A stretch of 64,000 nt of DNA from positions 64,001 to 128,000 of the forward strand of contig CAWJQC010000008.1 of assembly GCA_963844965.1 (NCBI GenBank). Reading direction: 5' to 3'. Positions 3,091 to 42,903 of the stretch are shown here, in pieces. The notes beneath the pieces are model-generated. The model did no database searches and was not told the DNA's origin. It saw only the letters and a list, made by a program, of their open reading frames with translations. Position 1 is the stretch's first letter. Every line of letters begins with the position of its first letter. This DNA comes from an uncultured bacterium. GTDB lineage: Bacteria > Patescibacteriota > Minisyncoccia > UBA6257 > 2-01-FULL-56-20. The translations under genes and the position numbers were made by a program.

Positions 3091-4123
3091 TGATTACTTT
3101 AAAAACAGTTTCCGCAAAATACTCCGGCATAAACCTTCTGAAGGCGGGCGATTCCAGATAACGCCGTATCGCGTTTCTGTAATCTTCCATCTCTCGCGGC
3201 GTCAAGGCACGTAGGAACGTCCTCAGTTCAGCGTAGTCTTTGAACTTCCTCATGTCTATAAAACAATCTGCAGGAACATCCTCTTCTATATCGGGAGCAC
3301 CCCAATACACCGGAATCGTGCCGGCAAAGAAACAATCAAAGATCTTTTCGGTAACATAACCTGGCCATATGGAATTTTCAAAGCAAAGAGAGAACTTATA
3401 ATCGCTTATCGTGGCCGACTTGTTCTCGGCCCTACCTCTCCAGATCTTTTTTATAAAAGGCAAACCGCTCGCTTCCCAGTGGCCGCCGTACAAATCAACC
3501 TCGCCTTCATATTTGCTGAAAAATTCCAGAGCGCGAACACGTTCGCTGTATAATTCCACTCCCCAAAAGCCTTTCGCCCGCCACCAATTGTTCATCATGA
3601 CCATAAACGATTTCCGCGGTTTCCGGAAATATTCCGAATTCAGGACCTTCAAGTTTTGGGCGTGATAGAAATGAGGGAAGCCGTCAACTTTCGGGACAAA
3701 AAGTGATTTGTCAAAACGGCTGACGATGGATGAAATGTTTCTGTAAACCCATGGGTTATTCACCGGCGATTCCCACTGCATCAGAATTTTTTTAGGGAAA
3801 TACCCAAGGATTTCCGGTAAATGTTCGTTCTTGAGCGGGAACGGTTTTTTTCTCCGCACCAGATTCATCAGACCGTACAATAATTTATAAAATCCGACCG
3901 GCGGATAGTTGAACACGATTACGACGTCGTTCGGGCTTCTGTCGTTGGCATTCAAAAAATCTATAGTATGAACCTCAATGCCACGGCCGTTAAGATAGAT
4001 TTTCAAAAAATCAAACGGCGGCGCGCTGTCGCCGTTCCTCGGCGGCAAAAAAAGCTTGTCGCCCATTTCCTGTTCTGAAAACGGCACGATATAGACCACT
4101 TTTTTCATTTTATTCATAGGCAT
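3083..4123 (-). CDS. Alpha-1,3-fucosyltransferase (GT10)
   Basis: The diagnostic FucT motif KFSLCFENSIWPGYVTEKIFDCFFAGTIPVYWG matches Helicobacter FutA-type GT10 enzymes. It is adjacent to GDP-fucose synthesis genes. Confidence 0.8.
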   Translation of the reverse strand: MPMNKMKKVVYIVPFSEQEMGDKLFLPPRNGDSAPPFDFLKIYLNGRGIEVHTIDFLNANDRSPNDVVIVFNYPPVGFYKLLYGLMNLVRRKKPFPLKNEHLPEILGYFPKKILMQWESPVNNPWVYRNISSIVSRFDKSLFVPKVDGFPHFYHAQNLKVLNSEYFRKPRKSFMVMMNNWWRAKGFWGVELYSERVRALEFFSKYEGEVDLYGGHWEASGLPFIKKIWRGRAENKSATISDYKFSLCFENSIWPGYVTEKIFDCFFAGTIPVYWGAPDIEEDVPADCFIDMRKFKDYAELRTFLRALTPREMEDYRNAIRRYLESPAFRRFMPEYFAETVFKVISE

Positions 4124-4169: not shown

Positions 4170-6016
<1,847 letters not shown>

Positions 6017-21292: not shown

Positions 21293-22183
21293 CTAATCAA
21301 TAGCTTCTAACCACTCGACGGGCGTTTTCATATCAAGTCCCATGTGCGGCCGTTCGGTATTGTAGTAGTGAAGAAAATCGGGAATCTCCTTGCGCCACGC
21401 GGCAAGAGTGTTAGGGATACGTCGTAAACAGTCCCGCTGAAGCGTTTGGATGAACCGTTCCACATGGCTGTTATCTGTTGGCGTCCGTACGCGCGAGTGG
21501 CGATGTGAAAATCCCTGATGCTCGATGACCTTGGTAAACCATTTTGAAAACTCCCCGCCACGGTCGGATTGGATTGTGACGAAAGGAAACGGAGCTGCCG
21601 CTTGCGCTTGCTGGACGAACCGTGCGCTTAAGCGGCTTGAGACCTGGGCGGCTGGCCATGCCCACGCCCAACGGGAACATACGTCGATCAAGGCGTACGC
21701 ATGGAGGTGGTCCATGGCAATACCTTCTTGCATTGAATCGATCTCAACCAATATGCCTGGCTTTGTGGGCATGGGACGCGGAAGATACTGGTGCCACTTC
21801 TTCCATTTTGAATATCGCGTGATACCGTGGCGTTTGAGTGTACGCTTCACGGACGAAAGGCTAACGGCAATCTTTTCCTCTTCTAGCCGGTGATGGACGA
21901 TCTCCGCGCATTGGTCCCGTTCGCTGCGAAGTGCAAGGATGCGGCCAATGACCGCTCGGTCGAGTTCGCGTGGATGATGGTGCGGCCGCGATGAAAGCGT
22001 CGGGATGACAAGATGACCGCCTTCGCCATATTCCGTGCCCCGCTTCACCCATAACCGGACCGTACAATGGCTGAACCCATACTTCCGAGCGGCCTTGCGG
22101 ATACTCCACCCGGACTGCGTGAGCGCGACTGCTTCCGCCCGTACCCGGGGCAGATGGGGATTCTTGGTGTATGCCATGTACAT
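21293..22183 (-). CDS. IS481-family DDE transposase (rve integrase core)
   Basis: MYMAYTKNPHLPRVRAEAVALTQSGWSIRKAARKYG (HTH) ... IQSDRGGEFS ... TPTDNSHVERF (DDE). The ORF track extends the N-terminus spuriously. Confidence 0.8.
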   Translation of the reverse strand: MYMAYTKNPHLPRVRAEAVALTQSGWSIRKAARKYGFSHCTVRLWVKRGTEYGEGGHLVIPTLSSRPHHHPRELDRAVIGRILALRSERDQCAEIVHHRLEEEKIAVSLSSVKRTLKRHGITRYSKWKKWHQYLPRPMPTKPGILVEIDSMQEGIAMDHLHAYALIDVCSRWAWAWPAAQVSSRLSARFVQQAQAAAPFPFVTIQSDRGGEFSKWFTKVIEHQGFSHRHSRVRTPTDNSHVERFIQTLQRDCLRRIPNTLAAWRKEIPDFLHYYNTERPHMGLDMKTPVEWLEAID

Positions 22184-22219
22184 AGCTTTGCAAATTCTTG
22201 GGTGGTTACAAGCTATTGA
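21293..22219. mobile_element. IS481-family insertion sequence, ~925 bp, 18-bp imperfect terminal inverted repeats
   Basis: Left TIR tcaatagcttctaaccac at 21297-21314. Right TIR gtggttacaagctattga at 22202-22219 (17/18 match). It encloses a DDE transposase gene. Confidence 0.7.
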
Positions 22220-22448
22220 ACCACGACACAGTCTTGACAATCCGGATGGGTTAGAAAGGAAATTCCAAGATTTAAATAGATTTGTTAAGGGCAAAGGGGA
22301 AAGAGATCTAGAATTAATTACGACATTCCATTTCTTATCAAAAACAGAGGGGAGCGCAAAAGCGAAAGAGAGACTCAAGGAGTTGAAGGGGGCGACACCT
22401 GAAGAAATAAAATACGCCACGGAAGCAATTAAGCAAATTCCATCATAA
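22176..22448 (+). CDS. Hypothetical small protein, start uncertain (would begin inside the IS right end)
   Basis: The only in-frame ATG is at 22176, inside the IS terminal repeat. The product ends ...KELKGATPEEIKYATEAIKQIPS. It is AT-rich, and its stop overlaps the next start (ATGA). Confidence 0.2.
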   Translation: MYIALQILGWLQAIEPRHSLDNPDGLERKFQDLNRFVKGKGERDLELITTFHFLSKTEGSAKAKERLKELKGATPEEIKYATEAIKQIPS

Positions 22449-22713: not shown

Positions 22714-25700
22714 TTAAACCTTCCTCACCGCCAGCCAGATTTCTTTGTCTTCAAATTTCGTTGTTTCTTCCGCGTCAAATTTTTCGGATTTTTTATATTC
22801 TATTTCGCGCGCGCCGGTTTCTTTTTTCAGCAACTCCTCCTTCTTGCCCAAGACAAGACGGATTTCCGCAGGGAATACGGCCGACAAAATCATTTCGTCT
22901 TTGGGCTTCAGGCCCGCTCTCTGCCGCAGTTCCTGGACCATGCGCACCACCTCGCGCAAAATCCCCTCTTCGCGCAATTCCGGCGTGATCGCTGCGTCCA
23001 ACTCAATCTCGCCCTTCATCTTTGAGTCCACAACAACTTCCTTGACATTCACCTCTTCCGCCAAAACCGCAAGTAAATCTTTGTTTGTTTTTAATTTTTG
23101 ATTCTTAATTTTTAATTTTTGCAATGGCTGGCGGACCTTGATTCCCGCCTCCGCCCGCTTTGCAAGTCCCAAGCTCGCGAGCCGCCGCACCTCGGCCATA
23201 GCCTTCAACAATTTTGAATTTTCAATTTTCAATTTTGCACTGGCAGGCCAATCGTGCAGGTGCACGGAATTTTTATAACCGAAGCTTTCGTGTAAATATT
23301 CCGCAAAGAACGGCATGAACGGTGCGGTCAACTTGGTTGTTTCACGCAAAACAAATCCCAATGTCGCCGAAGCCACCTTGAAATCCGCCTGACTTTGGGG
23401 CTTTTGCAGTCGCCTCCGCGAACGTCTTATATACCAGCGCGACAGGTCATCAACGAATTTTTCTATCGAAAGCGCCGCCTCGCGAATTTCATATCTGTCA
23501 AGATTTTTCGTTACACTAGCGACGGTTTGGTTGAGGCGCACAAGGATCCAATTATCCAAAACGTTTTTACTCGCCGTCGGCAGCTTTCCAACTTTAGCCG
23601 CTGACTCCGCATACGTCCGATAGAATACGAATGAATTCCAAAGAAGGAGGTGGAAGCGGCGATATGCCTTAAGAATTTCTGCCTCGTCAAAACTTTTCGG
23701 CTCGCCCAGGGGGGTTACGGTATAAAAATACCAACGCACCGCATCGATTCCGTATTTCCGTATTACTTCCCAAGGATCAACCACATTACCCCTGGATTTA
23801 GCCATTTTCTGCCCGTTCTTGTCGTTTATAAGCCCGAGCGATACAACATTCTTATATGGCGATTCGTGCCCCAAGGCGGTCGCGATGGCAAGCAACGTGT
23901 AAAACCAGCCGCGCGTCTGGTCCATCCCTTCGGCGATGTAATCGGCTGGATAATCCAAACCACGAGGCACGTATCCCACAACACGACCAACTTTTGTGTT
24001 GCGTGTCACGTGCTTTGTGCTTTGTGCGAACGGATAGTGAGCCTGAGCGAACGGCATCGCCCCCGAGTCGTACCACACGTCGGCAACTTCCTTCACCCGT
24101 GAAATTCTCTTGCCGCATCTGGGGCATTTTATGGAAATCATGTCGGCGTAGGGGCGGTGCAGGTCAACCTCGCCGGTGTCGTTCCTCGGAATTATCTTCA
24201 GTTCCAATTTGTGGCACTCCGCAGGCGCGACGAAATCGCTTCCACGGCTCACTTTTTCCACGACCGCTTTCTTTTCGCTCCAGCCAAGCGCTACCTGGTT
24301 CAGCATCCAAACCGGATATTCGTGCGTTACTAAAAGTATGTTCCTGCCCTTGTACTTTTTTTCCAGGTCCCGCAGCAGATCCCAGAGGCGCACGCGGAGA
24401 TCACGCAACGATTCGCCCCCTTCCGGCCCTTTTTCAAATCTTTCCGCATGCGTAGGGAAAAGTTCCCTGTACCTACCTTCGGGCTGCCCCTCCAGTACAC
24501 CCATATTTATCTCATGGAGCCGCCTGTCAAAAATAATCTTCTCCACACCAAGCGTCCGCGCGACAATCCTTGCGGTTTCTTGCGTTCTCAGAATATCGGA
24601 GGCGATAACCAAATTCATTTTATTTCCGGTCTCCTCAAGCGCATCCTTAAGTTTTTTGGCCGATTCTTCAGCCTCACTCTTGCCTTGCGGCGTAAGGTGA
24701 TACTCGCCCCGACCGCTGTCTATCACGTGAGCAAGAAGCGTCTCGGAAAATCCGTGGCGCATCACCCAATAATTATTTTTCGGGCCGCCGGCCAACCGAT
24801 CCAGTTCATCCAAACCGCCCACGACTTCCACATTCCCGCAACTTTTGCATTCCCAGATCGGCAACGGCGTTCCCCAATAACGCTCGCGGGAAAGATTCCA
24901 GTCCTTAACTTCTCTCAGCCACTCGCCGAAGCGACCGTCTTTTAGATGCTCCGGAACCCAGTTGATTTTTTTATTGTTTGCGAGGAGTTTATCGCGCAAC
25001 TTGCCCATGGCGATGAACCAAGAACTGCGCGCGTAATAAAGCACCGGCGTTTCGCAGCGCCAGCAATAAGGATATTCGTGCGTGTAATTTTCTATTTTGA
25101 AAAGATTGCCGTTCTTGCGGAGATGTTCAAAAATTTTCTCGTCTGTTTCTTCGGTTTTGACTGGCAAGCCACCAAGTTCCGGCACGTCGCGCGTGAATTT
25201 TCCTTCCTCATCAACAGTGTGCTTCTGCGGCAAGCCCACCTTAACGCCCAACCGGTAATCGTCTTCGCCGTACATAACGGCGGTATGCACAACGCCAGTT
25301 CCCTCGTCGGTCGCCACGAAATCCGCGGCGTAAACTTTATACGCGGCGGGGGTGCGGAGCGGCTTTATTTCAAACAGCGGCTTATAGTTCAGGCCAACCA
25401 GATCTTTGCCGCTCAGAACCTCACGCACGTCGGACTCCGTCCCGAACGGATTACCCTCTTTTTTGATTATCTCCTCGGCGACAATCCAGCGCTCAATTTT
25501 GCCGCCAACCATTTTCTTCACCAAGGCGTAATTTATTTTCTCCCCGACCGCCAGTGCAACGTTTCCCGGCAACGTCCATGGCGTCGTCGTCCATGACAAA
25601 ATATAGGTATCTTCGTCCGTGTGAATATCCTCGCCGATTCTCTGTCCGCGCTTTAATCTGAATTTAAGATAAACCGACTGCTCCGTTGTTTCTTTGTAGC

Positions 25701-26277
25701 CCATGGCAAGTTCGTGCGAAGAAAGTGCCGTGCCACATCTCGAGCACCAAGGAACAACTTTGTGGCCCTTGTACAAAAGCCGGCGCTTCGCGATCTGCGC
25801 AATCGTCCACCACAACGTTTCAATATATTCCGGATCGTAGGTAACGTAAGCGTCTCTAAGGTCAAGCCAGTAACCGATGCGGCGCGTCATTTCTTCCCAC
25901 TCATCCTTATGAAGCCAAACCTGCTCCTTCGCTTTTTTATTGAAAGCCGCGATGCCGAATTTTTCTATGTCTTTTTTGGATTTCAAGCCGAGCGCTTTTT
26001 CGGTGGCCATCTCCACCGGCAAGCCGTGTGTGTCCCAGCCGGCGCGGCGCGGCACAAAATAGCCGCGCATGGATTTGTAGCGCAAAATGATGTCCTTAAC
26101 TATCCGCGCGAGAATATGATGAATTCCCGGCTTGCCGTTCGCATAAGGAGGGCCTTCGTAAAACACGAATTTCCGCTTGCCACGCCGCTCGGCAAGCGTC
26201 TTTTCAAAAACATGATTTTCTTCCCAAAATTTCAGGACTTTCTCTTCTATTTTCGGGAGGTTGAATTCTTCGGGCAT
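22714..26277 (-). CDS. ileS: Isoleucine--tRNA ligase (type 2) carrying a ~200-aa histidine-phosphatase-like insertion
   Basis: PYANGKPGIHHILARIVKDI (HIGH region), the CP1 editing domain and KMAKSRGN are present. The true start is MPEEFNLPK at 26277. An extra segment NNYWVMRHGFSE...ILLVTHEYPVWM is inserted between WGTPLPIW and DLHRPYADM. Confidence 0.9.
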   Translation of the reverse strand: MPEEFNLPKIEEKVLKFWEENHVFEKTLAERRGKRKFVFYEGPPYANGKPGIHHILARIVKDIILRYKSMRGYFVPRRAGWDTHGLPVEMATEKALGLKSKKDIEKFGIAAFNKKAKEQVWLHKDEWEEMTRRIGYWLDLRDAYVTYDPEYIETLWWTIAQIAKRRLLYKGHKVVPWCSRCGTALSSHELAMGYKETTEQSVYLKFRLKRGQRIGEDIHTDEDTYILSWTTTPWTLPGNVALAVGEKINYALVKKMVGGKIERWIVAEEIIKKEGNPFGTESDVREVLSGKDLVGLNYKPLFEIKPLRTPAAYKVYAADFVATDEGTGVVHTAVMYGEDDYRLGVKVGLPQKHTVDEEGKFTRDVPELGGLPVKTEETDEKIFEHLRKNGNLFKIENYTHEYPYCWRCETPVLYYARSSWFIAMGKLRDKLLANNKKINWVPEHLKDGRFGEWLREVKDWNLSRERYWGTPLPIWECKSCGNVEVVGGLDELDRLAGGPKNNYWVMRHGFSETLLAHVIDSGRGEYHLTPQGKSEAEESAKKLKDALEETGNKMNLVIASDILRTQETARIVARTLGVEKIIFDRRLHEINMGVLEGQPEGRYRELFPTHAERFEKGPEGGESLRDLRVRLWDLLRDLEKKYKGRNILLVTHEYPVWMLNQVALGWSEKKAVVEKVSRGSDFVAPAECHKLELKIIPRNDTGEVDLHRPYADMISIKCPRCGKRISRVKEVADVWYDSGAMPFAQAHYPFAQSTKHVTRNTKVGRVVGYVPRGLDYPADYIAEGMDQTRGWFYTLLAIATALGHESPYKNVVSLGLINDKNGQKMAKSRGNVVDPWEVIRKYGIDAVRWYFYTVTPLGEPKSFDEAEILKAYRRFHLLLWNSFVFYRTYAESAAKVGKLPTASKNVLDNWILVRLNQTVASVTKNLDRYEIREAALSIEKFVDDLSRWYIRRSRRRLQKPQSQADFKVASATLGFVLRETTKLTAPFMPFFAEYLHESFGYKNSVHLHDWPASAKLKIENSKLLKAMAEVRRLASLGLAKRAEAGIKVRQPLQKLKIKNQKLKTNKDLLAVLAEEVNVKEVVVDSKMKGEIELDAAITPELREEGILREVVRMVQELRQRAGLKPKDEMILSAVFPAEIRLVLGKKEELLKKETGAREIEYKKSEKFDAEETTKFEDKEIWLAVRKV
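24166..24777 (-). other. Histidine phosphatase (PGAM-like, RHG motif) domain inserted within ileS
   Basis: The RHG catalytic motif (VMRHGFSE) and the distal His (LLVTHEYP) are spaced as in histidine phosphatase superfamily branch 1. The segment is in frame inside the IleS catalytic core. Confidence 0.55.
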
Positions 26278-26452
26278 TAGATTAAAAATATCAAATTTTT
26301 GACACATTTCCAAGCGAAAAATCCGCCAAGCATTTCCACGTACCGGACGGGACGGTCGCAGAGACGACAACACACGATTGACGTCTTTGTGCATATTTGA
26401 TAGTCTGAACCACAGAAACGTTGACAAAAATCTACCGAGATGGAGGTGTTAT

Positions 26453-32720: not shown

Positions 32721-33960
32721 TCAATGTTTTAATGGGAATTTCCTGCAGAGTTTTTTCACCGCGCCGTTCACATTCCTGTTTTGCGCCAAAACTTCGTCTA
32801 TCAGCCGCGCGACCTCCTTCATCTCTTTTTCTTTCATGCCGCGTGTCGTGAGAGACGGCGTGCCGATTCTTATTCCCGACGGGTCAAAGGGCGGCCTGGT
32901 GTCGTAAGGCACCGTATTTCTGTTCACAATAATGCTATTCCGCTCCAGACGATCCTGCGCTTCGCGGCCGGAAATTCCGAAATTCGTGAGGTCAATAAGC
33001 ATCAGGTGATTTTCCGTACCGCCAGAGACAAGATTGAAACCACGATGGACGAGTTCACGGGCAAGAGTGCCGGCGTTTTTAACTATCTGCCTACCGTACT
33101 TTTTGAAGGACGGCTGCATAGCTTCGTAGAGGCACGCAGCGATGGCGGCGGTTTGGTTGTCGTGCGGTCCGCCCTGAAGCGCCGGGAACACCGCCCTGTC
33201 AATTTCCTTGCCGATGTCAATTTTCTTCTTAAGGGCAAGCGGCGATACTCTGATTGGCGAAAATCAGCGCGCCGCGCGGTCCGCGCAGGGTCTTGTGCGT
33301 AGTCGTGGTCACGACATCGGCGTAAGGAAACGGCGAGGGATGCGCACCAGCGGCGACGAGACCGGCAATGTGAGCCACGTCCACGAGAAGATAAGCGCCA
33401 ACCTCGCGGGCTATCTTCCCGAATTTTTTGAAATCAAACTTTCTTGTATAAGCGGTCGCGCCGGCAACGATAATCTGCGGACGCTCTTTGCGCGCCATTT
33501 TTCTCACTACTTCGTAATCAATGAAGCCGTTGCGGTCAACGGAATACTGCGCGGACTTGTAAAATCGCGCGGAAAAATTCACCTTCCAGCCGTGCGTCAA
33601 GTGACCGCCGAAGGGAAGCGACATTCCCATGATTTTTTCTCCCGGCCGGAGCAGGGCGTAATAGACAGCCATATTCGCCGGCGAACCGGAATACGGCTGA
33701 ACGTTCACATGCCAATTTTTACCAAGATGGAAAACTTTCCTTGCCCTCTCCTGCGCCAATAACTCAATCTCATCAATCACCGAATTGCCCGCGTAGTATC
33801 TCTTACCCGGGTAACCCTCGGAATATTTGTTGGTTAGCGCGGACCCCAGTGCCCCGAGCACTCCGGCCGAAACGATATTCTCCGAGGGAATCAAGTCCAG
33901 AGTGTCGTTCTGACGCCGCGTTTCTTTTTTGATTAAATTTTCCACAATCTTGTCGCGCAT
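32721..33960 (-). CDS. glyA: Serine hydroxymethyltransferase (apparent frameshift around 33200-33240)
   Basis: ORF 33229..33960 has LIPSENIVS...[13 protein letters not shown] 32721..33191 has [11 protein letters not shown] ... The halves are joined through a different frame ([16 protein letters not shown]). Confidence 0.9.
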
Positions 33961-36586: not shown

Positions 36587-37096
36587 TCAGGGGTGAAACT
36601 TCCTGATGATTCTCACCGAAAAGTCGGCCGCAAAAAATTCCTTGTCCCTCGGGCACTTTTTCCCATATGCCTCGGGGTTGGTTTGATAATCCACGATGTG
36701 GCCGACTTCATGGAACAAATCGCCCACCGTCGCGTCCTCCTGAAGGATAATCTCATTAGTGTCGGGCCAGCAGAACGATGTGCTTGATTCTTCAATGCCA
36801 ACGCGGTAGCAGAGATACAGGTACGGCCGTAAAAATGTCTTTCGCATGTCCTTCGGCAGAATATAAACGCGCGGGACATCCAGGTTGCCAAGGCCGGCGC
36901 GCGTCAAACCACCGTGAGCGATAAATTCCTTCGTGCTGTCGCGACGCAAGAGAAAACCCGGATTGGAAATAATGCTGAAGCCGACAGTGACGTAAAAAAA
37001 GGCAAAGATTATGCACGCGTAGACCGGACCGCGAAACAAATCGGGCAGCGGCTTGGCCAAAAAATCAAACCAGAGCCAGCGCAGGGATTTTTTCAT
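36587..37096 (-). CDS. Membrane-anchored putative zinc metallopeptidase (HExxH)
   Basis: The ORF has an N-terminal TM helix and a DLFHEVGHIVDY motif. Confidence 0.4.
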   Translation of the reverse strand: MKKSLRWLWFDFLAKPLPDLFRGPVYACIIFAFFYVTVGFSIISNPGFLLRRDSTKEFIAHGGLTRAGLGNLDVPRVYILPKDMRKTFLRPYLYLCYRVGIEESSTSFCWPDTNEIILQEDATVGDLFHEVGHIVDYQTNPEAYGKKCPRDKEFFAADFSVRIIRKFHP

Positions 37097-37270: not shown

Positions 37271-37601
37271 CGTGGCGGAGGAAAAAAATAATAAGCAGAA
37301 ACTCGCTGCTATCATCGCGTATGTAAGAAAACGGCGGAGGGAATCCAGAATAAAAATCGGCGTACCCCAGCCGCAAACCTCATGCTGGGGCGGTGGCATA
37401 GGAGAATTCGGCAATCTTGTTGAACTTAGTTTACCGTACAGACACGAAGAAGAATGGGATGAGCTCAAGGACCAGGAAACCCTTGACGGCGTACACCGGT
37501 ATGTTTCCTATAAACCGCCAAAAAAACCAGAAAAAATGAAGGGAGCCGCAATTAGCGGCCCTTTTTATTTTTTTTGGAGGTGCCTCACCCGAGGACGTTA
37601 G
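37271..37601 (+). CDS. Hypothetical protein (GTG start after AAGGAGGTG)
   Basis: About 110 aa. Its 3' end overlaps the repeated GGTGCCTCAC motif. Confidence 0.3.
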
Positions 37602-37672
37602 AACCTGTTTTACAGAAATGGCCAGCAAATTGTGAGTCCGGCAGGTTCGAATCCTGTAGGGGTGTCTGCTCC

Positions 37673-37701
37673 AGAACTGTGTTTGAGAGGAAAAACGATA
37701 C
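37673..37701 (+). promoter_or_regulatory. Promoter module TTGAGA-N17-TATATA with conserved spacer (copy 1)
   Basis: ttgagaggaaaaacgatacgacgtatatat. It is near-identical to a second copy at 38924-38953. The spacer contains the palindrome ATACGACGTAT. Confidence 0.5.
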
Positions 37702-37840
37702 GACGTATATATTCCGGGCCTAGGGCCAACCAACGAGTCGGCTGCCCGTCCTTGACGATTACCAGCTCCTTGTGCTTTCATCTAAATGGCTGGCGAGCCG
37801 CAAGCGAGCCAGACTACTTGACAAAGGAGGAAGTGGCCCA

Positions 37841-38134
37841 ATGAGAAACGGGAAACTTCTGCAAATTCCAGGTACTGAACTTTGGAACGGTTTGGAGGCT
37901 CTGCAGGTGGGGGGTGTCACGCCCAACCTGTGGCAGCGTCTCCGCTTAGATCTTTATTTTAGACGATATGCTGTCGAGATGATGGTCCAAGAGAACATAC
38001 GCCACCCCGGCCTTTCCGAAGCGGTGGAAGGTTTCCATTACGACACCCCTCGCTCCAAACTCGCTAACGGACTTCGGGAAAGGGGTTTCTATGTTGTGAA
38101 AGGTGAGATACGTAGAGGCCCTCGAGCCACATAG
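37841..38134 (+). CDS. Hypothetical protein
   Basis: The ORF starts at an ATG 10 nt after AAGGAGG. It has no recognisable motif and lies downstream of promoter module copy 1. Confidence 0.35.
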   Translation: MRNGKLLQIPGTELWNGLEALQVGGVTPNLWQRLRLDLYFRRYAVEMMVQENIRHPGLSEAVEGFHYDTPRSKLANGLRERGFYVVKGEIRRGPRAT

Positions 38135-38471
38135 CACGTGGCCAGTACACGCAATGGACATCGTTTTCTACCCAATACAGCCATTCCGCGCTCTTAATCA
38201 GGAAGAGGCCAGAGCTGAGCTCGACGAACGCAAGGTCCGTCCTGCTTACACCGAGGAATTTCTGCGTTTTTGCATGACCAAGCTTGCATTGGATACCACC
38301 TGTAGCCGACAAATCGGCGGGGTGGTAGCTCTGAATGCCTACCGAGATGATTGCGGAGTTCGCGAATATCTTTGTCTGGATCGCCGCCTTGACGGCAATC
38401 CGGCATTGGGTTTCTGGCACCCCGAGCCGACTTTCCCTGGGACGTGGGCGTTTCTGGGAGTCAGGCCATAG
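38103..38471 (+). CDS. Hypothetical protein (possibly the continuation of 37841..38134 through a frameshift)
   Basis: It overlaps the preceding ORF by 32 nt in a different frame. It starts at GTG. Confidence 0.3.
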   Translation: MRYVEALEPHSTWPVHAMDIVFYPIQPFRALNQEEARAELDERKVRPAYTEEFLRFCMTKLALDTTCSRQIGGVVALNAYRDDCGVREYLCLDRRLDGNPALGFWHPEPTFPGTWAFLGVRP

Positions 38472-38677
38472 GTTCAATCTTGCAGATCGAGCAACTGCTC
38501 GTCGCCACGACAAAAAAATCGTGGCGCTTTTTTACGAAAAACACCAGGGTGCCTCACTAAAGGACGTCAGAACCAGAATAATCGGGGCGTTACTGAAAAA
38601 TCGGTATATTTACATACCGGATTTAACTTTGCCAATAACTGCGAGGTAAAGGAATCTATCAGATTTGATAAGCTTCT

Positions 38678-38866
38678 TTACTTTCCGGCCTTGTCTAAAA
38701 TCTTTGAACCTATGTTTATTGAACCGACCAAGACAACACCCGCCAGAATTGCATAAATAAGAGAAAATCCTATCGTATCAATCAAGTATAACGAGAACAT
38801 AAAAGAAATGCAGACGATTATAATAGCCGGAATCCAAATCAACAAGTAGCCGAGGAGTTTTTTCAT
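38678..38866 (-). CDS. Small 2-TM membrane protein
   Basis: MKKLLGYLLIWIPAIIIVCISFMFSLYLIDTIGFSLIYAILAGVVLVGSINIG. Confidence 0.4.
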   Translation of the reverse strand: MKKLLGYLLIWIPAIIIVCISFMFSLYLIDTIGFSLIYAILAGVVLVGSINIGSKILDKAGK

Positions 38867-38923
38867 AGATTTATTTTACCTTATTTTACCCCACCCCACC
38901 ACTCACCGTATCTCCAGGCATAT

Positions 38924-38953
38924 TTGAGCGGAAAAACGATATGACGATATATA
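38924..38953 (+). promoter_or_regulatory. Promoter module TTGAGC-N18-TATATA (copy 2)
   Basis: ttgagcggaaaaacgatatgacgatatatat. It lies about 145 nt upstream of the secreted-protein gene at 39096. Confidence 0.5.
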
Positions 38954-39095
38954 TTCCGGATGTAAAATCGCAAAATATTCCAGGCCATAGGCAGTATCGA
39001 CAATTTTTCTCATCTGTTATATAAGGGATATAGGCCCGCCAGCAAGTATGCGGCGGATGAGGCAGTTTACATCATAAAACAAGGAGGCGAACGCA

Positions 39096-39500
39096 ATGCG
39101 ACGATTTGGATTTCTGGCACTCTTTTTGGGAATGACCATTCTGGGGACGTCTGCGCTGGCGGGATCCGCCAAAGACGGCGAATATGTTCTTGAAAAAAAT
39201 CAAATACAACCCATGGGTGAAGATAAGAGCTGCGGTCCATATTTTATCCTGACCACATATGGCGGGCGTTCTGCGGAGAGGATTGTCTTTCATTTCGTTG
39301 ACGATGATGGAAAGATTCAGGCCGACGCAATCAAGATTTCGATGGTTTCGGTCGTCGGCGACAAAGACAAAAAAGTCCCAACCGTTCAGTTCGAAAAAAA
39401 CGAGGACGAGAGGACAATGATTTTGCGAATTAGCCCGGAGGACAGGCAAGAGGCAACCTGCCTTAAAGCCAAGAGCGACGATACCAAAGGAGGCCGCTGA
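39096..39500 (+). CDS. Secreted hypothetical protein with signal peptide
   Basis: A strong RBS (aaggagg) precedes MRRFGFLALFLGMTILGTSALAGSAKDG. Confidence 0.5.
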   Translation: MRRFGFLALFLGMTILGTSALAGSAKDGEYVLEKNQIQPMGEDKSCGPYFILTTYGGRSAERIVFHFVDDDGKIQADAIKISMVSVVGDKDKKVPTVQFEKNEDERTMILRISPEDRQEATCLKAKSDDTKGGR

Positions 39501-39649
39501 ATCTAAACGGCCCCTTTTTCTTTTCTCGACGCCCTAAAAATATCAACATTTTTCGCCGGGTGCCTCACTTGAGGATGTTATTGTTTCGAAAAGAAAAAAC
39601 CGCCTCGGAAAACCAAGACGGTCGATGCACGTTTCCAGTACATTGGCTT

Positions 39650-39680
39650 GAGTGAACGGACGGCGAGGGGTATAATGAAG
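39650..39680 (+). promoter_or_regulatory. Promoter TTGAGT-N17-TATAAT
   Basis: ttgagtgaacggacggcgaggggtataat. A 33-codon basic mini-ORF at 39700..39801 follows it. Confidence 0.45.
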
Positions 39681-39948
39681 TTACTAAAGAAGAAATAGCA
39701 TGGCTCATCGCGGAGGCAAGAGAACGAAAAATAAGAGGAACCGAAAAGCACGGCGAAAGTTTAATAGTCGGGTTATTTTCCCGTCAGAAAGAAGGAGATG
39801 ATATCGTGGGCAGTCCGGTCGCGCCGACATGGTAGCCGTATCTGTCCCTCGATAATAAAAATACTTGGGGTGCCTTGTTGGATGTGTTTAGAACCGTGAA
39901 TTGGAATGAATTACGGGAAGGTATGGCGAATTTAAGCTTTGTGGGCGG

Positions 39949-40365
39949 TTAATAAACCCAGATTCCAATAGCAAGCAGGATAATCCGCACGAGCATAAAG
40001 GCAATTAAGTGGAGCATATAAAATATACCCTTTTCGAACATATCAATGCCCCAAATTTTGAAACAGATAAGAATGACGGCGGAGTGGACGATAAGGTAAG
40101 AGAAACTGCCAATTATCCGGTTGACAGATGGAGGAAGGCCGTTGGATTGGCGCATCCTTCCGAAAGTCATTGCGGTAAAAACGACAGAAACCAACACGAG
40201 GAAGATACCGATTACGATCGTTGGGATGAGGGGTGAAATAAACGATTGCCACAATTGCACGAAAGGCGCATCAAGGGCGTTAAATATCGGCTGGAGCATT
40301 TGGGTCGCCGAGGCGACAGCGCTGGAGGAATACACTGGGAAGATAACCGGCGGTGTAGATGTCAT
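39949..40365 (-). CDS. Hypothetical membrane protein
   Basis: The 138-aa ORF has 3 predicted TM helices. Confidence 0.4.
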   Translation of the reverse strand: MTSTPPVIFPVYSSSAVASATQMLQPIFNALDAPFVQLWQSFISPLIPTIVIGIFLVLVSVVFTAMTFGRMRQSNGLPPSVNRIIGSFSYLIVHSAVILICFKIWGIDMFEKGIFYMLHLIAFMLVRIILLAIGIWVY

Positions 40366-40431: not shown

Positions 40432-41667
40432 ATGAAAATCGAGAGCCAAAAACTCAACGTAACCGAGGCGTTTAAAAACTTCTATTACATCGTCCCGCCG
40501 TATCAGCGGGAGTATGTTTGGAAGGAGAGAAACGTTGCCCAGTTATTTAACGATATTTACGACGAATATACCAACGATAAAAACTCCGAATACTTTATCG
40601 GCAGTATCGTCGTAAATAAGCGTGAGGATGGCACATACGAAGTGATCGACGGCCAACAGCGATTAACCACTTTATTTATTAGTCTTTGTGCGCTTAAACG
40701 TGTGTTCAAAAATTCCCAAGATCATTTAAGCGTTATAGAAAATCTGCTCACTTCCCCGACGACGAACGATAAAGGCGAAATCATCCGCAGCTCCCATCTT
40801 GAACTGCAATATGAAGGCACAGCAGACATTTTACGCGATATTTTGAATGACAAGGAATTAAGCAAAAAAACGTCTGGTTCGGCAGAACACATCAAAGAAG
40901 CCCTCGAAACCATCCTCGAATACCTGAACGCAAACTTCAAAACAGAAAATGACCGAACGCGGTTTTATGGATATTTTATGCACAAGGTAAATTTTGTGCA
41001 GATTGAAACGCCGAGCGTGAGCGACGCTTTGAAAATTTTTGAAACGATCAATGAGCGCGGCGTTGGCCTGAATCCGATGGATTTGCTCAAAAATTTGATA
41101 TTTCAGCAATTGCCACGCGACGAGTTTCAAAAGGTTAATGTCGAATGGAAGAAAATAACGAGGACGTTGGAAAAGAATGGGCAGAAGCCACTCCGCTTTT
41201 TACGCTACTTCATAATGGCCAACTATCAGGTCAAGGATACTAAAGACGTCGAGGTTGTGCGTGAGGACGAGATTTACGACTGGGTGGTAAGACACGCCGA
41301 GGTTTGCGGCTATAGGAAAGATCCATTCGGGTTTGTGGGAAAAATCGCCACAGATGCCGAAGCCTACGTTTCATTTTTCAACGGTATGACGCTGGAGGGC
41401 AAGAATAGCGTCGAATTGGAAAACATCAGGAGCTTGGGCGGCGGTGCATTCAGCCAACATTTAGTTATGCTGCTTGCGGCCAAAGAGTTGCCCGAAGACC
41501 TTTTTCTTCATCTCGTTCGACAGGTGGAAAGCTTATCTTTTACTACTTCATTACGAAAACTCCCGCGAAAGCACTGGAAGCCCGTTTTTCCCGATGGGCG
41601 GATGATTTGCGTGATGTAGCGGGCGATGCAGATCAAAAAGCCGCCCTCAATAAATTCATAATGTAAA
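40432..41667 (+). CDS. DUF262 (ParB/Srx-fold, GmrSD N-terminal type) domain protein; apparent frameshift near 41550
   Basis: VPPYQREYVWKERNVAQLFNDIYDEY ... IDGQQRLTTLFISL are DUF262 hallmarks. The C-terminus continues in another frame (...KTPAKALEARFSRWADDLRDVAGDADQKAALNKFIM*). No DUF1524/HNH partner domain is present. Confidence 0.6.
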
Positions 41668-41718
41668 GGATAGGTTTCTTTAGACAGTGATTCGACGGCT
41701 TTTTGCCGTTTTTTTTCG

Positions 41719-42501
41719 TTAAGCCGCAATCTTCTCGGCAAACACGGACGGCGGCATCTTGAGGGCGGAGTGGATCCGCGTGTGGTTGTACTGCCACAAG
41801 GTGCTGTAGATCTCCGCCACGAGCTCGCCGAAGGTCCCGAACCGGTTGGGATCACCGAGGTCAATCTTGAACTTGTCATAGAACGATTCCTGGTAGCCGT
41901 TTTCCCATGGGGCACCGGGCCGCGACCGCGAGATCGTGATGCCACAGTCCCCCAGTGTATCGGTGAACGCTCGTGCCTTGTACTCGCTGCCGTTGTCCGA
42001 ATGGAAGATGACCGGATGCGGATGGTGGAAAAGCGCGTTGGCCAGGGTCTGTATCGTGAGGGGCGATCCTTTCCGCAACGCCACATGGACGCCCATCAAT
42101 CGTCTCGTGAAAAGATCGAGTATCGTGGACACGTACACTTTCTTGCCGCGATACAGGAACTCCGTGAAATCGGTTGCCCAGACGTGGTTCGCGTACGAGG
42201 GCATGATGGCAAGTAAGAGGTTCGGAAAGGCCCGCGATGCCTTTGATTTCCGGTATTTCCTGCCTCGCCTCCGGTACGGCCTTATGCCGAAGATTCGCAT
42301 GACGCGCTGCGCTCGCGGACGGCTCACGCCCAGAGCTTGTCCCAAGCGCCGGGAACCGTATGCCGGATGGCGCTGCAATTCTTCTTCCATGCGGATCTTG
42401 AGCGCCCAATCTTTCTTGTCCTGCCGTGATACGTAGTAGAGCGATGCCCGCGAGACGCCCATGGCCCGCGCCATGGCGGACTTGTTCCGCTTTTCCGTCA
42501 A
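41719..42501 (-). CDS. IS3-family transposase OrfB (DDE integrase core)
   Basis: HSDNGSEYKARAFTDTL ... PGAPWENGYQESFYDKFK. Confidence 0.85.
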   Translation of the reverse strand: MTEKRNKSAMARAMGVSRASLYYVSRQDKKDWALKIRMEEELQRHPAYGSRRLGQALGVSRPRAQRVMRIFGIRPYRRRGRKYRKSKASRAFPNLLLAIMPSYANHVWATDFTEFLYRGKKVYVSTILDLFTRRLMGVHVALRKGSPLTIQTLANALFHHPHPVIFHSDNGSEYKARAFTDTLGDCGITISRSRPGAPWENGYQESFYDKFKIDLGDPNRFGTFGELVAEIYSTLWQYNHTRIHSALKMPPSVFAEKIAA

Positions 42502-42761
42502 TTCTTTTTTTGGGCCTGGGAGAGCTTCACGGTGAGCTCGCCCACCACTTCAAACAGCTCCCTGTTCTGCTTCTGGAGACGGCTGAACTCGCCCCAGGAA
42601 GGGACGCCCGATGCTCCTGCGCCTAGCCAATTGTAGATGGTGGACTCGTGCAAACCGTGGTCCTTCGCAGCCTGCGCTACGGGGACTCCTTCTTCCTTCA
42701 CCCGGCGGAGGATGTCCGCCTTCACTTCCTTCGCAATCCGATGCCCTTTTTTGTTGCTCAT
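42498..42761 (-). CDS. IS3-family transposase OrfA (HTH)
   Basis: HTH and leucine zipper (ELTVKLSQAQKKN). The ORF ends at the AAAAAAG frameshift window. Confidence 0.8.
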   Translation of the reverse strand: MSNKKGHRIAKEVKADILRRVKEEGVPVAQAAKDHGLHESTIYNWLGAGASGVPSWGEFSRLQKQNRELFEVVGELTVKLSQAQKKN

Positions 42762-42903
42762 GACACAATGGTAGTTTGTTTCGACCTTTGTGTCTAAATT
42801 ATCCTATCCGGGTCAGTTGAACTCAAAACAGTTTGCCATCAATGCGGATTATTGTTATAAACAAGGCAGCATGACGCCACCCAAAGCGAAACAAGGAGAG
42901 GGA

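Follow-up and report, generated by a model that had tools for sequence, protein, structure and literature searches.

A possible remnant array of small integrase-less cassettes at a tRNA-His locus in a Patescibacteria bacterium

We analysed a stretch of 64,000 nucleotides of contig CAWJQC010000008.1, here called the window, and within it a segment of about 2.4 kb in which a 27-nt motif and a promoter-like module recur among small genes, between a 92-amino-acid (aa) gene and a GmrSD-type defence gene. A sequence-only reading had taken this segment for a cassette array acquired by integration near a tRNA remnant, a proposal that points in the right direction but misjudges the nature of the motif. 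We put the probability at about 0.55 that the segment is the remnant of a tandem array of integrase-less cassettes of ~0.3-1 kb inserted at the 3' end of a tRNA-His gene; the motif is most likely a scar copied from that gene end, which would mark the cassette insertions. The host is a Patescibacteria (Candidate Phyla Radiation, CPR) bacterium near Candidatus Liptonbacteria, and the nearest named relatives of the flanking thioredoxin-like protein are from Candidatus Liptonbacteria and other Patescibacteria, at no more than 72% identity.

Genes and promoters of the segment

The left anchor of the array is an ortholog of the 92-aa gene (37272..37601, +), which is 73% identical over 188 nt (BLASTN) to its counterpart in a relative, L023, and was aligned by eye with L023 8851-9129 (-), L025 8361-8639 (-) and L029 2583-2861 (+). 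The stop codon of the relatives is a TAG in the terminator loop, found here at 37553-37555, and the C-terminus of the window copy is probably frameshifted in an A-run (~37520-37540). The terminator is bidirectional (37545..37575; GCCGCAATTAGCGGC followed by a T-run), and the same hairpin is present in L023. Motif copy c1 starts 3 nt past the T-run, and from there four copies (c1 to c4) delimit units that we call cassette A (37579-38547), cassette B (38548-39558) and cassette C (39559-39868), with a further unit beyond c4.

Cassette A carries promoter module P1 and a single gene. Five small open reading frames (ORFs) had been proposed for the segment, two of which (37841-38134 and 38103-38471) are halves of one 209-aa gene (37841..38471, +) with a frameshift at 38110 in the window: a 207-aa homolog (P0121) covers 99% of the fused sequence at 60% identity, so the two small ORFs are one gene. 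A near-identical public contig, L001 (99.9%), differs at four positions, two of which are indels inside these same ORFs, and the window and L001 each carry a different indel in the gene. Its product looks cytoplasmic; the gene is also found elsewhere, beside dnaG, and is followed here by the cassette A terminator (38503..38532, +). A hairpin in its 5' untranslated region (5'UTR; 37790..37812, +; CTGGC-GA-GC-CGCAA-GC-GA-GCCAG) is retained in L028 (1125-1147), has tandem G-A mismatches and shows one compensatory change from C-G to U-A relative to L028. Between the two, the 5'UTR is 81% conserved and the coding region 67%, and the hairpin may be a leader element.

Cassette B contains a 62-aa gene on the opposite strand (38678..38866, -; terminator at 38602-38619, -), which is also called in L001, followed by promoter module P2 and the gene for a 134-aa protein (39096..39500, +). 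The claim that one small protein has a signal peptide holds to the extent that, read directly, the 134-aa protein has a signal-peptide-like N-terminus; the 62-aa product has two hydrophobic (membrane) spans. Homologs of the 134-aa protein are 68% (P0124, at the same locus in L029) and 76% (P0123) identical. A 12/13-nt inverted repeat, TTTACAT(A)CCGGA (38609-38621 / 38954-38966), flanks the 62-aa gene and overlaps the end of P2, and this gene may have been inserted secondarily into the composite of motif and promoter.

Cassette C, headed by promoter P3 and apparently decayed, holds only tiny, unsupported ORFs and no credible gene. Between c3 and P3, within 39592-39658, the minus strand has a strong hairpin resembling a terminator (39598-39623), with no obvious minus-strand gene upstream; its Rfam match is weak, sub-threshold and reflects the terminator. 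The unit beyond c4 comprises a 138-aa multi-span membrane ORF (39949..40365, -) and a GmrSD_N/DUF262 defence gene (40432..41664, +). The former lies between c4 and the DUF262 promoter, parallels the 62-aa gene, has no family match and is omitted by the gene caller on L001; the latter is Orf5/HEC-06-like according to PADLOC and covers ~370 of ~555 profile positions, its 3' part missing.

The two 33-aa ORFs are unsupported as genes. The expectation that the small genes should be conserved in relatives holds for the 209-aa, 134-aa and 92-aa proteins, all of which have homologs. None of the small proteins matched Pfam, NCBIfam, PADLOC or PHROGs, and AlphaFold2 on three-row alignments reached predicted local distance difference test scores (pLDDT) of only 36 (134-aa) and 35 (207-aa homolog), too poor for a fold search. 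Nor is the cargo specifically secreted or membrane-bound, as had been proposed, since it also includes the cytoplasmic-looking 209-aa protein, a short-chain dehydrogenase (in L023) and the GmrSD-type defence gene. The description of the segment as AT-rich does not hold either: its GC content is 0.478 against a window mean of 0.491 (standard deviation 0.014 among windows of the same size, 16% of which are equally low), about one standard deviation low, and its parts are heterogeneous (0.533, 0.435 and 0.468).

The promoter module occurs twice in the window, over 37 nt at 92% identity with one indel. P1 (37683..37727, +) reads TTGAGA-17-TATATA, with the tandem 8-mers AACGATAC and GACG-TAT in its spacer and TTCCGGGCC after it; ATACGACGTAT, previously noted as a spacer palindrome, is at 37698-37708. 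P2 (38924..38957, +) reads TTGAGC-18-TATATA. Of the two starts given before, 38924 is correct and 37673 should be 37683. The module sequences are real, but P1 and P2 fail a promoter scan because their -10 element is TATATA, and calling them promoters stays an interpretation. The third promoter, proposed near 39650, was recovered as TTGAGT-17-TATAAT at 39648-39676 (+); this P3 heads the 310-nt cassette C and is possibly a diverged copy of the same module. The 134-aa gene has a second core promoter of its own, read directly as TCGACA-17-TATAAG (38997..39025, +), with the L029 counterpart TGGACA-17-TATAAG. A scan of the viral collection for the module gave 0 matches.

The 27-nt motif

The motif, GGTGCCTCAC..GGAYGTYAGAACC, was found in plus-strand letters at the three sites already reported, none of them expected by chance, and at a degenerate fourth site that had been overlooked. 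We read all copies on the minus strand. The reference copy is c1 (37579-37605; minus strand GGTTCTAACGTCCTCGGGTGAGGCACC), to which c2 (38548-38574) is identical at 23 of 27 positions, c3 (39559-39585) at 19 and c4 (39869-39895) at 18 without gaps, c4 retaining the ends GGTGCCT and TAGAACC. The window contains no further copy, all four lying within 2.4 kb on one strand. Among c1 to c3 the left 10 nt are invariant and every difference is confined to the right 17 nt, and the segments between copies are mutually unrelated in sequence. The CCTC..GAGG hairpin ascribed to the motif is present in c1 and c3 but absent from c2 and from L001, and the distance from motif to next promoter ranges over 3, 62, 77 and 349 nt (3 nt being the L023 case). 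With its left 10 nt equal to the tRNA-His acceptor, the motif looks like a recombination scar rather than the hairpin or upstream regulatory site it had been taken for.

Scanning sequence collections with GGTGCCTCACNNNAGGAYGTYA yielded 10 genome, 10 metagenome and 0 viral matches, all singletons from unrelated taxa; these lie inside coding DNA (G-A-S-x-x-D-V) and we regard them as chance. The viral collection gave 34 matches to GGTGCC-N6-GAGGACGTTRG, all in unrelated coding DNA. A coding remnant (GASxxDVRT) was ruled out, downstream similarity being absent and the upstream frame inconsistent, as was GGAGGTGCCTC (L023 5863-5873) as a further copy, which is a glycine-rich coding stretch. Dispersed repeats such as repetitive extragenic palindromes or miniature inverted-repeat transposable elements were rejected because all copies lie within 2.4 kb and the other 61 kb of the window have none.

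Similarity of the motif to tRNA-His

Read on the minus strand, the copies end in GTGAGGCACC then T (c1), GTGAGGCACCC then TGG (c2), GTGAGGCACCC (c3) and AAGGCACC then CCA (c4), and the tRNA-His gene of L023 (3864-3935) terminates in ..TTCCCGTGAGGCACCC, then TGG. The 11-mer GTGAGGCACCC of c2 and c3 is exactly positions 62-72 of that 72-nt tRNA, with c1 sharing 10 nt and c4 8, and the c2 match runs to 14 nt when the trailer is included. GTGAGGCACC(C) is thus the exact 3' acceptor strand plus discriminator of the L023 tRNA-His. An acceptor stem gives an identical reading on both strands. The two bases preceding the acceptor (GT) suit the end of a T-stem, as expected for a 3' reading, and not a 5' reading with U8-N9. 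When gaps are allowed, GGTTC and TCC of the T-arm can also be aligned, separated by five additional bases.

Since single 10- to 11-mers shared with a tRNA are not rare, the case rests on the 3'-end match, orientation, position and synteny combined. The relatives share a left-flank order of IleRS - ArgRS - FolD - SHMT - dCMP deaminase - thioredoxin-like gene, and in all of those with enough contig (L023, L024, L025, L030/31/34 and L036/37/39) tRNA-His shares the strand of the thioredoxin-like gene and is located 0.1-5 kb beyond (upstream of) it. Wherever they carry the 92-aa gene, the 3' end of tRNA-His faces it, and the motif has the orientation of tRNA-His in all relatives. The DNA between the 92-aa gene and tRNA-His is variable: L023, L025, L029, L036 and the window all differ. 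(A supposed strain difference between L031 and L034 was ruled out; their DNA is identical and only the gene calling differed.) Within the window, ARAGORN and Rfam found only tRNA-Leu (16548) and tRNA-Arg (56638), and no tRNA-His.

The strongest support for a tRNA-His origin is the position of c1. Three relatives have displaced 3' fragments of tRNA-His in exactly its place: L025 has a 16-nt exact direct repeat of the tRNA end, 99 nt from the tRNA; L036 has the displaced end CCCGTCGGGCACCC, of an acceptor type unlike that of its resident tRNA; and L023 has a shorter remnant, CATCGGCAC. We read c1 as such a displaced, attR-like fragment. A partial counterpart of c3 is also present at the orthologous place in L029 (~5735-5760).

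Two further observations concern these relatives. At L036 8212-8321 (also in L037 and L039) the resident tRNA-His has the acceptor GAGACAT and a displaced GTGCCCG-type end lies 22 nt downstream, and an exchange of the entire tRNA-His allele appears to have taken place here at some time. L029 has, within a 474-aa ORF at a distance of 1.1 kb from the 92-aa gene, a 16-nt exact copy of a tRNA-His 3' end, ATTCCCGTGAGGCACC (3985-4007, -), with another, partial copy, CCCATCGGCA, before it.

A tRNA remnant had previously been seen in the T-arm 11-mer GGTTCGAATCC, which is indeed at 37644-37654, inside a T-arm-like hairpin (37641..37657, +; GCAGG-TTCGAAT-CCTGT). Acquisition near a tRNA was the right direction, but the tRNA-derived element would be the 27-nt motif itself and not only this 11-mer, which is oriented opposite to the tRNA-His-like motif. 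The hairpin is inverted relative to c1, with 37642-37651 pairing weakly as an inverted repeat with the right end of c1 (37598-37607), and it sits in a 77-nt stretch missing from the compact L023 composite described below. Neither ARAGORN nor Rfam completes a tRNA at 37644, in agreement with the earlier statement. The segment has no match at any Rfam gathering threshold (the weak ones are terminators only) and no foldable tRNA, which excludes a known RNA family or tRNA gene, and the fold of 37576-37672 is ordinary (z -0.75 and -0.95); an RNA element or pseudo-tRNA formed by c1 and the T-arm piece was ruled out on the same grounds.

A composite site in relative L023

The motif and the promoter module, whose recurrence outside the window the sequence-only reading had made a test, are both present in L023. 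In window orientation this relative has the terminator of a 204-aa gene, GGGGTGCCATCGTGGAGGACGTTGGGATT, 3 nt, TTTGAGAGGTTGAACGATGCGACGATATATATTCCGG, a short-chain dehydrogenase (adh_short) gene, a terminator and an intact tRNA-His. Its motif copy is GGTGCCATCGTGGAGGACGTTGGGATT; its promoter module (4845-4891) keeps the relative orientation found in the window and shares 83-86% identity with P1 and P2. The shared layout is an acceptor end, GAGGACGTT, and TTGAGAGG..AACGAT..GACGATATATATTCCGG. The L023 motif retains GGTGCC and GAGGACGTT and differs in the six bases between them, a difference that follows the variation among lineages in tRNA-His acceptor stems (CTC, CCG, CAT). The L023 target and displaced fragment enclose ~990 nt, compared with 969 nt for cassette A and 1011 nt for cassette B.

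A model of serial insertion

We propose that tRNA-His originally lay tail to tail with the conserved 92-aa gene, and that each insertion would regenerate the tRNA end while pushing the older copy farther off. On the minus strand the motif would consist of an element-side block, GGTTCTRACGTCCT.., that loosely mimics a T-arm, followed by the 10-11 nt of acceptor and discriminator. Each event would take the left part anew from the resident tRNA, and the right part would come with the incoming DNA; the identical left 10 nt and variable right 17 nt fit a regenerated tRNA part and a differing element part. A complete cassette would comprise a scar, 3-350 nt, a sigma-70-like promoter module that may drive the cargo, one or two genes and a terminator. 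Consistent with this model, gene content between the anchors differs among relatives, and GC differs between cassettes (0.533 versus 0.435).

The absence of tRNA-His from the window would be accounted for by an IS3-family element (41665..42812, -; orfA/orfB; inverted repeats 41668-41686 / 42791-42809). The GmrSD/HEC-06-like gene stops at about two thirds of its length where this element begins, and no target-site duplication is visible, a combination that suggests an IS-mediated deletion. Such an event would have removed the tRNA-proximal end of the array, tRNA-His included. No tyrosine or serine recombinase was found among the segment ORFs or the larger window ORFs scanned, where only two DDE transposases were seen; any recombination must then act in trans, a mode put forward for cis-mobilizable elements (PMC5704250), or alternatively the units are fixed relics.

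A bolder version, which we hold to be speculative and rather unlikely, is a hitherto undescribed gene-capture platform of Liptonbacteria-like CPR bacteria, in which cassettes of ~1 kb, all with a promoter and terminator of their own, would be serially inserted at the 3' end of tRNA-His by a recombinase whose gene lies elsewhere (chromosome, phage or plasmid), with the tRNA acceptor end plus GAGGACGTT as composite site. If real, it would amount to an integron-like system on a tRNA target with self-expressing cassettes.

Alternative explanations

A number of points weigh against an insertion array. The exact match to tRNA-His is short (10-14 nt), and single 10- to 11-mers shared with a tRNA arise by chance elsewhere in the window and are not rare in 128 kb. 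The part of the motif that corresponds to the T-arm has five extra bases and cannot fold as one, and the L023 fragment shares only GGCACCC with the resident tRNA-His. Because the window has no tRNA-His, the match had to be made to the tRNA-His of relatives, and the defining end of the array is missing, as is a tyrosine or serine recombinase. The composite occurs in two organisms only: nhmmer profiles of the promoter module and the motif, run against the loci of all relatives (L023-L025, L028-L039 and L074-76), found none in L024, L025, L028-L039 or L074-76. Neither excision products nor empty sites were seen, nor presence/absence differences between strains. Finally, the 134-aa gene with its 5'UTR and core promoter (38997-39025) is syntenic in L029 without P2, so that this gene may be resident rather than cargo.

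The likeliest alternative involves no site-specific recombination: an ancestral tRNA-His fragment and promoter unit would have been duplicated locally, homologous recombination or gene conversion would have shuffled the neighbours, and the composite would be vertically inherited in the window and L023. We consider this unlikely, although the 83-86% identity of the composite between window and L023 about equals that of coding DNA, and vertical inheritance of a functional promoter can explain such conservation of the module without mobility; every copy lies within 2.4 kb on one strand, and the synteny of the 134-aa gene and its 5'UTR in L029 without P2 fits as well. The sequences between copies are unrelated, however, which would call for complete cargo replacement three times, and the differences between copies are limited to the element-side 17 nt. 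Independent duplications of the target fragment in L025 and L036 are, moreover, signatures of integration.

Less probable still is a purely regulatory origin, in which a transcription factor would bind the 27-nt site and the RACGATRY repeats of the spacer, co-regulating the accessory genes, and the likeness to tRNA-His would be incidental. The motif does lie upstream of a promoter-like site at c1, at c3 and in L023, a partial motif and promoter are retained at the orthologous place in L029, and the module is conserved in two species over all 37 nt, spacer included, which exceeds what a bare promoter needs; the conserved spacer with its tandem RACGATRY repeats suggests protein binding. Yet the spacing between motif and promoter varies from 3 to 349 nt, the portion that stays constant among the copies is tRNA-His acceptor sequence and varies in L023 as the acceptors of the lineages do, and c1 stands in place of the displaced tRNA fragments of relatives. 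No gene for a regulator is apparent, and none of the small ORFs matches a DNA-binding family. Regulatory and scar roles are not exclusive. Sites close to att often bind recombination proteins that also repress promoters.

We give very little credence to the idea that the scar-promoter composite alone (70 nt in L023; 138, 410 and 122 nt in the window) is mobile as a miniature promoter-carrying insertion among resident genes, without cargo: homology to L029 starts right after P2 (38958), where the 134-aa gene with its own promoter looks resident, and the 209-aa gene retains its own 5'UTR in the L028 context, but the L023 fragment lies one gene from an intact tRNA-His in direct orientation, the geometry of a gene-carrying insert, and the composite has neither terminal inverted repeats nor target duplications and no dispersed copies in 64 kb.

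Comparison with known integration systems

As an insertion array at tRNA-His, this locus would behave as a hot spot of tRNA-targeted integration at which decayed or integrase-less elements accrete. The ssrA islands of Dehalococcoides form tandem arrays whose boundaries are marked by direct repeats of the target 3' end, with a conserved element-side motif beside the repeat that is not alignable to the target and places the crossover near the T-loop; units without integration genes were proposed to be cis-mobilizable (PMC3146451). The window resembles them in its tandem array, its target 3'-end repeat and its non-aligning element-side motif. Those islands, however, are 10-30 kb long, many with a serine recombinase (DsiB) module, and have a 20-bp repeat and an intact ssrA (PMC3146451), whereas the units here measure 0.3-1 kb and hold one or two genes, no recombinase was seen, the target stretch is 10-14 nt and the target tRNA is missing from the window.

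Under the Islander principle, inserted DNA lies between a target gene that has been regenerated and a displaced, directly oriented 3' fragment of it, and an integrase and an intact tDNA are required (PMC4383910). The L023 target with its fragment and the 99-nt remnant of L025 are Islander-like. In the window, a displaced 3' fragment in direct orientation is present, as judged against the tRNA-His of relatives, and synteny is interrupted, the left flank being syntenic and the interior different among relatives. The intact target tRNA at one end is absent from the window and present in L023 (3864-3935), and no integrase lies inside the island among the ORFs scanned. Unlike Islander islands, the window cassettes are far below usual island size. 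Genomic islands targeted to tRNA and transfer-messenger RNA genes were reportedly also treated by Williams in 2002.

Cis-mobilizable elements (CIMEs) have lost their integration and transfer genes, keep their att sites and stack in tandem at the target 3' end (PMC5704250, citing Pavlovic 2004); they are decayed integrative and conjugative or integrative and mobilizable elements of several kb from Firmicutes (PMC5704250). The att-like repeats here likewise come without integration or transfer genes, cassette A being bounded by c1 and c2 and cassette B by c2 and c3, with cargo only. Unlike CIMEs, the units carry no apparent vestige of a parent element, and a conserved att-proximal promoter is common to them. 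The tycheposon islands of Prochlorococcus are tRNA-adjacent hot spots with successive integrations and scattered partial tRNAs, in which newer elements push older ones outward; tycheposons encode tyrosine recombinases, contain replication modules and extend over kilobases (bioRxiv 10.1101/2020.12.28.424599). A tRNA-side hot spot filled serially is common to both, but no recombinase or replication genes were seen here.

Integron arrays are similar in having serial single-gene units of ~1 kb in one orientation with a short recombination-site-like repeat between them. Unlike integrons, the segment has no intI and no attC architecture, its units have their own promoters and terminators, and its repeat probably derives from a tRNA end. 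No intI with attI and Pc is present, and there is no tyrosine recombinase in the window. The attC reading was rejected because there is no RYYYAAC ... GTTRRRY pair (GTTAGAA and GTCAGAA fail GTTRRRY) and no dyad beyond 4 bp. The left end of the motif, GGTGC, resembles Escherichia coli dif, but a Xer/dif site (integrative mobile elements exploiting Xer, which sit at the replication terminus, or pdif; ~28 nt with two ~11-nt inverted arms and a 6-8-nt spacer) was likewise rejected: the arms match at only 4 of 10 positions, and the cumulative GC skew does not change sign here.

Taken against these systems, the locus is most likely a small, enzyme-less version of a well-known route of gene gain; what is unusual is the 0.3-1 kb unit size, the promoter-gene-terminator design, the conserved att-proximal promoter and the host group.

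Implications

CPR bacteria have tiny genomes, and their ways of acquiring genes are, to our knowledge, poorly understood. Should the 1-kb units truly be mobile, few known self-expressing integrative cassettes would be smaller, and a trans-acting recombinase with a tRNA-His hot spot would be a route by which CPR bacteria acquire accessory genes for secreted, membrane and defence proteins. If the units are immobile, the locus is still a clean case of repeated tRNA-end integration, with short scars left behind that may pass for regulatory motifs.

Neighbouring genes

The analysis also mends the annotation of three genes with frameshifts at the locus. Suspected frameshifts are at 38110 and 38420 (209-aa gene), ~37520-37540 (92-aa gene), ~41570 (DUF262 C-terminus) and in the SHMT ORF (33229-33960), which spans profile positions 4-248 of 399 where relatives have 412-453 aa; these suggest either assembly indel errors or decay. 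Upstream of the segment, a 169-aa protein with an HEVGH motif (36587-37096, -) stands in the place and on the strand of the relatives' DUF5317 190-aa gene, to which it is unrelated, and has only six homologs among 1.8 billion representative proteins. The second DDE transposase gene (helix-turn-helix and rve domains; 21293-22420, -) lies between a TyrRS/TrpRS-type synthetase gene and IleRS. The IleRS itself (22714-26427, -; 1237 aa) has a His_Phos_1 domain inserted at residues 554-719, between the halves of its catalytic domain, and the same architecture is found in the IleRS of L023 (16974-20573).

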